Program-made: the position numbers and the translations under genes
Notes under the pieces: generated by a model
Databases searched by the model: none
Told to the model about the DNA's origin: nothing
Seen by the model: only the letters and a program-made list of their open reading frames with translations
Part shown: positions 37,714 to 39,912 of the stretch, in pieces
How positions within the stretch are numbered: position 1 is the stretch's first letter
How the letters are laid out: each line of letters begins with the position of its first letter
Sequence record: PQ657772.1
Origin: Escherichia phage EC.P1
Strand: one strand, 5' to 3'
Length of the DNA: 64,000 bases

Positions 37714-39912
37714 TTAACTGTTTCTCTCACCTTGGGTGTTTTCAGAGATAGTTCTTAGATAATTATTTGTCTGTTGTACAGCAGATAGTGATTGTTCATT
37801 AACATCGGCAAGCTTTTTGAGTATTTCTTTCATTTCATCAGAAATCGGTGCTGGTGGTCCAGTTCTCGATGTCACTGCACTACCATTATTTATCATCTTC
37901 TTAATTGCCTCTGTATCGTCAGGTTTTGGCGGTACTGGTGGTTCACCTGGTGCCCATGCAGTTTTATCAAAATCTTTACGAGATACAGTTATCTCTGGAG
38001 CAACGTTATTGGTTTTTTCAATAACAGGACGAATACGTTCTACTCCTGGACGGTTGAATAAACTGTCAGCATAATCAGATGGTAGTGGTTTTGGTTCTTT
38101 GTAGTTACGTGAGGTGTTCCATTTGTTGAACTTATCCCACATCCCTGCAAAATAATCACTAACACTATTTACACCGTTGTCAATGATGTTGTTTACGCTT
38201 TCTGCTGGGGTTTCAGTACTGTTATTGAGTTTTATATCATTATCAGAACCACCACCGAACCAACTTTTAACAGAATTCCATAGGTTACCAGGTAAATCCA
38301 TTAAGTTATTCATAAAGGTATCAAATGCTTCTGACACTTTAGAGTAACCTGAACCGAATATATCTGCACCCAATCCATCCAACCAAGCTGTAAATTCAGC
38401 ACCAATACGATCAAGGTAAGCAATTGCATCTTTAGCAATAGGTACTAACCCAAATCCATCAAGAGCCAATTCCCCAATAAACTCCCATGCACCATCAGTT
38501 CTGTCTGCAATGTCTGAAAGATAATCCACAATTGAATTTTGTGTATTAGCATACATTGTATTAAATGGTTCAGTGAATTCTTTACTAATCCACATATTGA
38601 AGCGGTTAGTAAATTGAGTTAATTTATCAGCGGGATTATTTTTAGGTTCATTTACGGTTGCTTCCATATCCAATAGTTGTTGGTAGAAGGTTGCAGCAGT
38701 TGTGTTTCCTAATTGAATCTGGTTAAGCAAATCTTGCTTAATTAATTCTTTATTCTTTTTAACGAATTCTAATTGTTGGCGACGAATTTCTTGTGAATCA
38801 GTTACACCACTACGCACAAGATTTTCACCTAAATCAGCGAACTGGTTCAGTACTGGAGTGAGTAGGTCATCCGGTACACCACCAATAGACAATCTGTGTG
38901 ATATCAAACGGAGGAAATCTGCACCTGCATCACCCATTGCACCCGCAGCTTCGTTGAACGCCTTAGATGTTGCTACAGCAGCTTTACTGGATAGTCCAGA
39001 GTAGTTCTGCAATGCAATTTGCATAGAACGCGTATCGAGTGATTTATCTAGGTTTTGTGTTTTGTTTAGTAATGCATCAACGGATTCACCCATGCTTTTA
39101 CTGAATTTAGTCATGCTCATGATGAATTGTTCAGTACTTTTAGCTTGGTCCATACTACGAAGAGCTTCACGACCACCATATTGTTTTTGGAACTTAATGT
39201 TTCTTGCAGTTAAATCAGTTAATGTTTTTTGAGAAATACCATAAAGGCCAAGTTCATTTTGAGCTTGTTGAACAGTTCCTAATAATTTACCAAAGGTAGC
39301 AACACCATCACCATATGCCCCATCCAATTGAGCTACCACAGAACTATGTGTTTGTAGAGCTTCACTGAATGCATCCATACTCAACATAGATGCACCTGCA
39401 CCTTTCAGTACTGAACCATAACCTTCAGCCAATGCAACACCAGCACTGTTAATTCTGGTATATACTTCCAATTGTGCATTAAGTGCGTTATATACAGCAA
39501 GACCAGCACCAGTAACGAGTTTAAATGCTGCTGCCGCTGCACCAATTGGACCTGGCATCATTGCTAATGAACCAGCAAATGATGATGCACTAACGCCTAA
39601 TGAGTTTACTACAGTACTTACGTTCGTACTGGAGTTCATCATTGTTTTGCTTACATTGGAAACTTCAGAAGATAGTGATTTGAACAATTTACCAAATGCT
39701 TTCCCATCATCGGCTTGTGCACTTCCACGATTTCCACGATTACTGGAAGAACTGGAACTGGAACCATTCTTTTTACTATTTGAACCTGATTTTTTCTTAT
39801 CATTCTTTATATTTTCAGCTAATAACTCACGGATAGCAGTCAAACTATCATTGTTATCTTTAGTTTGATTAACCAACTGCTGTAGTAGGTAATCACTTGT
39901 ATTGACAGCCAT
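37714..39912 (-). CDS. large virion protein, tape-measure-like or internal head protein
   Basis: Start set at ATG 39912 (AAAGGGAA RBS); Ser-rich N-terminus, Ala/Gly-rich helical middle; function unassigned. Confidence 0.45.
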   Translation of the reverse strand: MAVNTSDYLLQQLVNQTKDNNDSLTAIRELLAENIKNDKKKSGSNSKKNGSSSSSSSNRGNRGSAQADDGKAFGKLFKSLSSEVSNVSKTMMNSSTNVSTVVNSLGVSASSFAGSLAMMPGPIGAAAAAFKLVTGAGLAVYNALNAQLEVYTRINSAGVALAEGYGSVLKGAGASMLSMDAFSEALQTHSSVVAQLDGAYGDGVATFGKLLGTVQQAQNELGLYGISQKTLTDLTARNIKFQKQYGGREALRSMDQAKSTEQFIMSMTKFSKSMGESVDALLNKTQNLDKSLDTRSMQIALQNYSGLSSKAAVATSKAFNEAAGAMGDAGADFLRLISHRLSIGGVPDDLLTPVLNQFADLGENLVRSGVTDSQEIRRQQLEFVKKNKELIKQDLLNQIQLGNTTAATFYQQLLDMEATVNEPKNNPADKLTQFTNRFNMWISKEFTEPFNTMYANTQNSIVDYLSDIADRTDGAWEFIGELALDGFGLVPIAKDAIAYLDRIGAEFTAWLDGLGADIFGSGYSKVSEAFDTFMNNLMDLPGNLWNSVKSWFGGGSDNDIKLNNSTETPAESVNNIIDNGVNSVSDYFAGMWDKFNKWNTSRNYKEPKPLPSDYADSLFNRPGVERIRPVIEKTNNVAPEITVSRKDFDKTAWAPGEPPVPPKPDDTEAIKKMINNGSAVTSRTGPPAPISDEMKEILKKLADVNEQSLSAVQQTNNYLRTISENTQGERNS

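Follow-up and report, generated by a model that had tools for sequence, protein, structure and literature searches.

What does the gene directly upstream of the portal gene of Escherichia phage EC.P1 encode? We addressed this question in a 64,000-nucleotide (nt) stretch of the phage genome (PQ657772.1; hereafter the window), where an initial annotation, made from the DNA letters alone, had described the gene as tape-measure-like. The feature is the following:

37714..39912, minus strand: coding sequence of a 732-amino-acid (aa) protein, putative tail tape measure protein and gp29 analogue, PHROG 14121

We propose, with a probability of roughly 0.65, that the 732-aa protein is a tail tape measure or central hub protein, the functional counterpart of T4 gp29 with no detectable homology to it. 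The literature and GenBank already carry a tentative tape measure label for this gene, and what we add is comparative support. Of the two roles that the initial annotation had offered, a tail length determinant or an internal or ejection protein, the evidence favours the first, leaving the second unlikely.

The coding sequence is real and lies at the coordinates first given for it, but its product has 732 and not 733 residues, the earlier figure having counted the stop codon (2199 nt encode 732 aa plus stop). Translation starts at the ATG at 39912, with a Shine-Dalgarno-like AAAGGGAA just before it; a longer mechanical open reading frame (ORF) from the GTG at 40119 was rejected because all homologues begin MAVNTSDY. 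The protein matches phrog_14121 ("virion structural protein") over its full length (E 3.4e-297, residues 1-732 against positions 1-745 of the 745-position profile), a family whose members include RaK2 ORF088, 121Q gp597, GAP32_244 and CBB_251. A tblastn search found identical copies (100%) in the Escherichia phages Ecwhy_1, fEgEco12 and vB_Ec-M-J, and homologues of 99.9% identity in BF17, 79% in 121Q/PBECO4, and 31-39% in RaK2, K64-1, GAP32, CBB, BF and others. All 72 records with a match belong to the RaK2-like jumbo phage group, and because of this identity pattern we assign EC.P1 to the RaK2-like (Asteriusvirus) jumbo myoviruses. The phage has a contractile tail and belongs to the T4 superfamily.

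The first line of evidence for a ruler is the way in which the gene evolves. None of the surrounding genes evolves as fast: identity to the RaK2 orthologue is 36% for this gene, against 51-80% for 12 neighbours. Across 19 cluster representatives at 26-57% identity its product measures 719±15 aa (range 681-740), and in these representatives the N- and C-terminal helices and the core are conserved and the linkers are rich in indels. Tail and protein lengths compare as follows:

T4: sheath about 92.5 nm (textbook value), gp29 of 590 aa, 0.157 nm per aa
Atu_ph07: tail 136 nm, 845 aa, 0.161 nm per aa
fEgEco12: sheath 109 nm, 732 aa, 0.149 nm per aa (PMC13070987)
CBB: tail 123 nm, 722 aa, 0.170 nm per aa (PMC5259590)
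RaK2: tail 128 nm, 720 aa, 0.178 nm per aa (PMC3622015)

The comparison of tail with gene length, which the initial annotation had suggested, thus gives 0.149-0.178 nm per aa over five phages, imaged by transmission electron microscopy (TEM) in different laboratories and measured under differing conventions. These ratios are consistent with an alpha helix, which rises by 0.15 nm per residue. In TEM from one laboratory, the tails of BF17 and the T4-like BF15 stand at 99/78 (1.27), and the 732-aa protein and gp29 at 732/590 (1.24).

The second line is the architecture of the protein, which we divided into these segments:

39805..39912, minus strand: aa 1-36, conserved N-terminal amphipathic helix (S-D-Y-L-L-Q-Q-L), mean column conservation 0.54
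39688..39804, minus strand: aa 37-75, Ser/Gly/Asn/Lys low-complexity, indel-rich linker, conservation 0.36, gap fraction 0.16
39463..39687, minus strand: aa 76-150, Ala/Gly-rich hydrophobic helices, maximum Kyte-Doolittle score (19 residues) 1.52 at aa 123-141
38878..39462, minus strand: aa 151-345, conserved helical core with an FSKSMGESVD motif, the region common to hundreds of distant relatives
37843..38232, minus strand: aa 561-690, variable, indel-rich and Pro-rich segment, conservation 0.31, gap fraction 0.19
37717..37842, minus strand: aa 691-732, conserved C-terminal helix ending NNYLRTISENTQGERNS, from family alignments

Composition analysis agrees with the earlier description of a Ser-rich, low-complexity N-terminal part and an Ala/Gly-rich helical middle: Ser makes up 32% of residues 51-100, including the run SSSSSSS, Ala and Gly together make up 30-36% of residues 101-200, and there is no Cys. 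Both termini carry recurring motifs, (E/D)xLL(E/Q)Q(L/I)L at the N-terminus in relatives down to about 20% identity and (A/E)-N-T...N about 10 residues before the C-terminus across the family. An AlphaFold2 (AF2) model built on a 10-sequence alignment has a mean predicted local distance difference test score (pLDDT) of 46 and a predicted template modelling score of 0.27; only residues 150-420 reach a pLDDT of 55-86. Secondary structure assignment with DSSP gives about 26 helices over most of the chain and no confident tertiary fold. The protein therefore appears, from AF2/DSSP and from the lack of a fold match in the PDB, to be mainly alpha-helical and extended without a globular fold, which is a trait of tape measures; all-helix predictions of low confidence are typical of such proteins.

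The third line is gene order. The two genes that flank the gene of the 732-aa protein are these:

40058..40894, plus strand: gp26-like baseplate hub gene (PF12322, E 1e-23), its divergent partner
35965..37701, minus strand: T4-type portal gene (gp20; PF07230, E 3e-112), 12 nt downstream on the same strand

The order gp26 (divergent), 732-aa protein homologue and portal recurs in metagenomic contigs in which the homologues are only about 15-25% identical to the EC.P1 protein:

contigs with all three genes in this order: L004, L006, L008, L010 (572 kb) and L016
contigs in which only the gp26 side is visible: L017 and L018

With these, the divergent pair occurs in seven distant metagenomic relatives, and it is also present in RaK2. 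The gp26 gene of T4 likewise faces away from the hub operon gp51-27-28-29-48-54, so a gp29 analogue would be expected to show this pairing.

The fourth line comes from distant relatives. An exhaustive hidden Markov model search with a 10-sequence family profile (A1) collected 400 proteins at E<=1e-3, of which the more remote align mainly to residues ~100-340, and reversed or shuffled control sequences gave no matches to this profile. A second, word-indexed homologue search with a 60-sequence profile gained little. Each of 60 distant relatives scanned matches PHROG 14121, and an NCBIfam scan of 60 distant relatives found VanY/LdcB-type peptidases only and no tape-measure model. Lytic domains have been added to several relatives: the L004 homologue (1254 aa) carries Phage_lysozyme2 and VanY, and P0089 and P0111 have additional C-terminal Phage_lysozyme2, VanY or peptidase domains. 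C-terminal lytic domains are common in many tape measures. We also built a broader second-iteration profile (A3), a few members of which match tape-measure PHROGs or PF20155, the match of P0089 falling in its lytic domain. P0181 (1415 aa), a likely relative, matches only A3 (81 bits; hhalign probability 89%, E 2.4e-6). It directly precedes a 243-aa gene, a gp53 gene of the same family as the gp53-like gene of the window (phrog_7145), a 751-aa Phage_base_V hub gene, gp25 and gp6, and judged by this gene order it occupies the position of gp29. P0179, a positional orthologue of the 732-aa protein, gives an end-to-end alignment to the family profile (135 bits) and a hit to phrog_167, "tail length tape measure protein" (E 2.7e-13). 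We regard the P0181 and P0179 links as supportive, not conclusive, and treat them with caution because they rest on A3, carry high bias scores, and A3 gives up to 35 bits to reversed tape-measure-like sequences. A Foldseek search of BFVD with the AF2 model returned homologues together with weak tape measure or minor tail protein hits at template modelling scores of 0.1-0.3; nearly all named hits were of these kinds, which is a hint only.

The protein is present in virions of at least one relative. CBB_251 was found in CBB particles with 29 unique peptides and 50% coverage (PMC5259590), and CBB preparations also contained free tails. The annotation of GAP32_244 is that of a virion structural protein, and no confident match of the 732-aa protein to a non-structural family emerged, in keeping with the structural role first suggested for it. 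Public labels for the gene range over hypothetical, structural, putative tape measure, tail length tape measure, pore-forming tail tip (pb2) and major capsid protein. The fEgEco12 record names it after pb2, and the homologue in vB_EcoM_CRJP21 (OQ708376.1) is labelled "major capsid protein", an evident misannotation. The RaK2 authors placed ORF088 among the tail genes in 2013 because it very weakly resembled the tape measure of an Enterococcus phage, calling the assignment uncertain and adding that the protein may not be morphogenetic (PMC3622015). The weak similarity to phiFL4A gp48 behind that annotation was not reproduced by tblastn at E<=1 against 50,697 phage records.

We next set out how the tape measure would work. 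A few extended, largely alpha-helical copies would be built into the central baseplate hub with the help of the gp26-like hub factor, the conserved C-terminal helix anchoring in the hub/spike complex. The tube would then polymerise around the protein up to the conserved N-terminal helix, so that tail length would be set at ~0.15 nm per residue, and on contraction the protein would leave the tail in front of the DNA. Envelope crossing may be aided by its Ala/Gly-rich hydrophobic helices, and the lysozyme and VanY domains added in relatives may also contribute to it. The location in the tube lumen, the copy number and the ruler function are our inferences from the comparative evidence.

Several results weigh against this proposal. 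The protein and its family profile found nothing in Pfam (E<=0.01), NCBIfam or PDB sequences, and none of the tape-measure models in Pfam and NCBIfam was matched. There was no significant match to T4 gp29 (PF25671/phrog_1283), hhalign giving probabilities of at most 3% when the A1 and A3 profiles were compared with gp29 and with an 18-sequence gp29 alignment, and none in hhalign to T5 pb2; by sequence, the protein is thus not a member of the gp29 or TP901-type families. PDB chains gave no match by sequence or by Foldseek, which returned only designed helical repeats (E>0.2) for the model, and the tblastn search of the 50,697 phage records (E<=1) reached RaK2-like phages only. The peptide count of CBB_251 was the second highest of 55 proteins and exceeds what would be expected for 3-6 copies, in a virion table that lacks sheath and portal and hence is not quantitative for its abundance (PMC5259590). 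RaK2 gp088 went undetected by gel-based mass spectrometry (MS), as did the 3-copy gp5 (PMC3622015). To these points we add the small and heterogeneous basis of the length ratios, the dependence of the P0181 and P0179 links on A3, and the adjacency to the portal gene, which is as conserved as that to gp26 and could equally mean a role in the head.

This last point leads to the rival that survives best. The protein may be an ejection ("pilot") protein that is packaged inside the head near the portal and leaves the capsid through the tail at infection to breach the envelope, on the model of T7 gp14-16 or the phiKZ/SPN3US-type ejection proteins; we consider this unlikely. It would account for the position directly upstream of the portal gene (12 nt, same strand), which the initial annotation had correctly noted. 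This adjacency is near-universal: it is also found in Atu_ph07, L007 and L015, and is kept in every contig in which the downstream gene is visible, except L005. The high number of CBB_251 peptides in CBB virions and the hydrophobic Ala/Gly segment would fit as well, and lysozyme and VanY domains such as those of the relatives are found in ejection proteins too. However, the T4-like head module is complete without the 732-aa protein: the portal gene is followed by a 75-aa ORF, a 281-aa protein, a gp21-like protease, a 371-aa protein and a gp23-like capsid protein, collinear with T4 gp20-67-68-21-22-23. The conserved L/I-x-E prohead-protease site that closes the N-terminal capsid-targeting sequence of T4-type internal head proteins (IPs, Alt) was not found either. 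The sole N-terminal L-x-E site (LAE, aa 31-33) has Glu in 6 of 10 relatives and is not a conserved gp21-type cleavage site because the other 4 have Asp; in more distant relatives it is gone. This model would not explain why the length is so tightly held, why the termini are conserved or why the gene is paired with gp26, and the failure to detect RaK2 gp088, shared with 3-copy gp5, argues for low abundance.

A broader proposition, which we think quite unlikely, is that the protein represents a tape-measure lineage unrelated to gp29, which took the place of gp29 throughout the RaK2/Atu_ph07 jumbo-phage superclade and was fixed in one operon with the portal, or, in a stronger version, no ruler but a portal-linked ejection protein that in some lineages may deliver a lysozyme and a VanY-type peptidase into the periplasm. 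If either were true, the genetic coupling of head and tail would be functionally meaningful.

It is improbable, in our estimate, that the protein serves the tail or neck as a virion or assembly component other than the ruler, such as a hub plug, a tube-initiation scaffold or a neck- or portal-associated helical protein, with another gene encoding the tape measure, for example that of the 751-aa protein (47657..49912) or the 654-aa g314 homologue. The lack of homology to gp29 would fit this, several other large "virion structural proteins" remain uncharacterised, and the 751-aa protein lies within the baseplate module with an N-terminal coiled coil and no assigned function. Yet the latter is 56% identical to its RaK2 counterpart, as expected of a globular baseplate part, against 36% for the 732-aa protein, which alone among the proteins examined joins an all-helical prediction, a ruler-like length and rate pattern and links to tape-measure PHROGs. 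A non-structural protein co-purifying with virions is very improbable: the missing MS signal of RaK2 gp088 and the caution of the RaK2 authors would agree with it, but CBB_251 occurs in virions at 50% coverage, GAP32_244 is annotated as a virion protein, and in every relative examined the gene sits between the late genes of the hub and those of the head.

We return to the tape measure proposal, for which no other convincing candidate appeared among the tail-module proteins examined. The 751-aa protein was dropped, having no informative match and being far more conserved than the 732-aa protein. It is a conserved virion protein, a baseplate or hub component of RaK2-like phages with no assignable family (plus strand; phrog_11190, between the gp53-like and gp5-like genes), and MS found its CBB homologue CBB_241. 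Two further candidates were dropped: g327 of fEgEco12 is a true Clp/AAA+ ATPase, and Atu_ph07 "gp701", as identified by gene order, has only 205 aa and is rich in Gly. The electron cryomicroscopy paper on phiKp24 gave no guidance: no tape measure is named there, and the major capsid protein of that phage (597 aa) differs from the gp23-like protein of EC.P1 (391 aa). The gp26 pairing, the ruler-like length and rate pattern, the lytic fusions of relatives and the gp29-like position in one lineage together give a reasoned basis for labelling PHROG 14121 as the putative tape measure in RaK2-like jumbo phages. Should this be borne out, the T4 superfamily would contain an example of gp29 being replaced by a non-orthologous protein, and the protein could serve as a handle for engineering tail length. 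The finding opens no new biological question, and its value lies mainly in annotation.

The wider neighbourhood settles what the gene does not replace. Two further features are needed here:

39913..40057, no strand: divergent intergenic region between the gene of the 732-aa protein and the gp26-like gene, holding CATAAATA at 39945-39952, minus strand
46600..57090, plus strand: baseplate module with gp48-like, gp53-like, 751-aa, gp5-like hub/lysozyme, lysozyme, gp25 and gp6 genes, presumed assembly partners of the 732-aa protein

Past the gp26-like gene come gp49, gp46/47 and gp55 and then the baseplate module, whose gp48, gp53 and hub genes lie 6.7 kb away on the opposite strand; such genes directly follow only the putative relative P0181. 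As noted before, the window holds no sheath gene, none being present among the ~30 window ORFs scanned. The heading under which the gene was first presented, as lying where T4 has its sheath and tube genes, was nevertheless misleading. The near-identical fEgEco12 has a sheath gene (g295) and three tube-like genes (g297-299) at 127-133 kb, ~67 kb from the gene of the 732-aa protein, and the absence of a sheath gene is trivial because these genes sit past the window end; the sheath of CBB is CBB_204. The 732-aa protein replaces neither sheath nor tube, and the jumbo genome is rearranged relative to T4.

Upstream of the gene, CATAAATA differs at one position from the T4 late promoter and is a putative variant of it. 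The consensus TATAAATA occurs at six sites in the window against 7.2 expected, and so shows no overall enrichment. Four of the six are correctly oriented and precede late structural genes by 18-50 nt: 32850 and 34059 on the minus strand, before the capsid gene and the gene of the 371-aa protein, and 46557 and 52602 on the plus strand, before the gp48-like and lysozyme genes. A gp55-like sigma factor gene is found at 45629..46570.

Other observations concern gene structure in the window and its relatives. A 309-aa HNH-type endonuclease gene (30619..31548, minus strand; phrog_681/559) between the major capsid and tail-fibre genes looks like a homing-endonuclease insertion polymorphism: fEgEco12 has no gene at this spot, and RaK2 has the endonuclease ORF095. 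The large terminase is spread over three consecutive or overlapping ORFs of 445, 114 and 228 aa (16246..18548, minus strand), annotated likewise in fEgEco12 (g367-g369); the gene may be truly split, or the cause may be an intron, a frameshift or the remnant of an intein. In L004 (13775..15928) and L010 (12907..16671) the portal genes are split by inteins, with PF14890 between two Portal_T4 halves. Tandem paralogues of one virion structural protein family (phrog_9326) lie at 20277..20876 and 20892..21581 on the plus strand. The gp5-like hub protein (49926..52589, plus strand) has a C-terminal lysozyme domain, and a separate 162-aa gene (52627..53115, plus strand) copies the gp5-like lysozyme domain (phrog_13211 positions 727-885). 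After the gp6-like gene no complete ORF is listed for 57100..64000 on the plus strand, which corresponds in fEgEco12 to a single 3323-aa gene (g328, hypothetical) that runs past the window end.

Finally, we compared the 732-aa protein with known systems. T7 gp16 and the ejection proteins of phiKZ and SPN3US are large helical virion proteins with lytic domains; some relatives of the 732-aa protein also carry lytic domains, and the protein itself is linked to the portal. In contrast to them, it has no conserved prohead-protease site and has a ruler-like length constraint, and there is no sequence match. T5 pb2, a tape measure and pore-forming tail tip, is likewise long and helical with hydrophobic segments, and C-terminal peptidoglycan hydrolases are found in pb2, in many siphophage tape measures and in relatives of the 732-aa protein. 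An SKxTGxS-like motif is common to both but not significant, and neither pb2 nor the TP901/lambda-type tape measures (PF10145, PF20155, TIGR01760) gave a significant profile match. Unlike these, the gene has no frameshifted chaperone upstream, and its phage is contractile and T4-like, not a siphovirus.

The closest comparison is with T4 gp29, the baseplate hub subunit and tail length determinator. No sequence or profile similarity links the two proteins, and the hydrophobic segment of gp29 is stronger (2.2 against 1.52) and that of the 732-aa protein nearer to the N-terminus. Unlike gp29, the 732-aa protein is not flanked by gp27/gp28 or gp48/gp54, its gene being joined to the head operon upstream of the portal gene. 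Both, however, come from myoviruses of the T4 superfamily, and the gene of the 732-aa protein adjoins the gp26 hub gene divergently. The two proteins share a layout of N-terminal helix, linker, hydrophobic segment, long helical body, Pro-rich region and C-terminal anchor, and, by the literature values, a similar ratio of tail length to residue number, 0.15-0.18 nm per aa.

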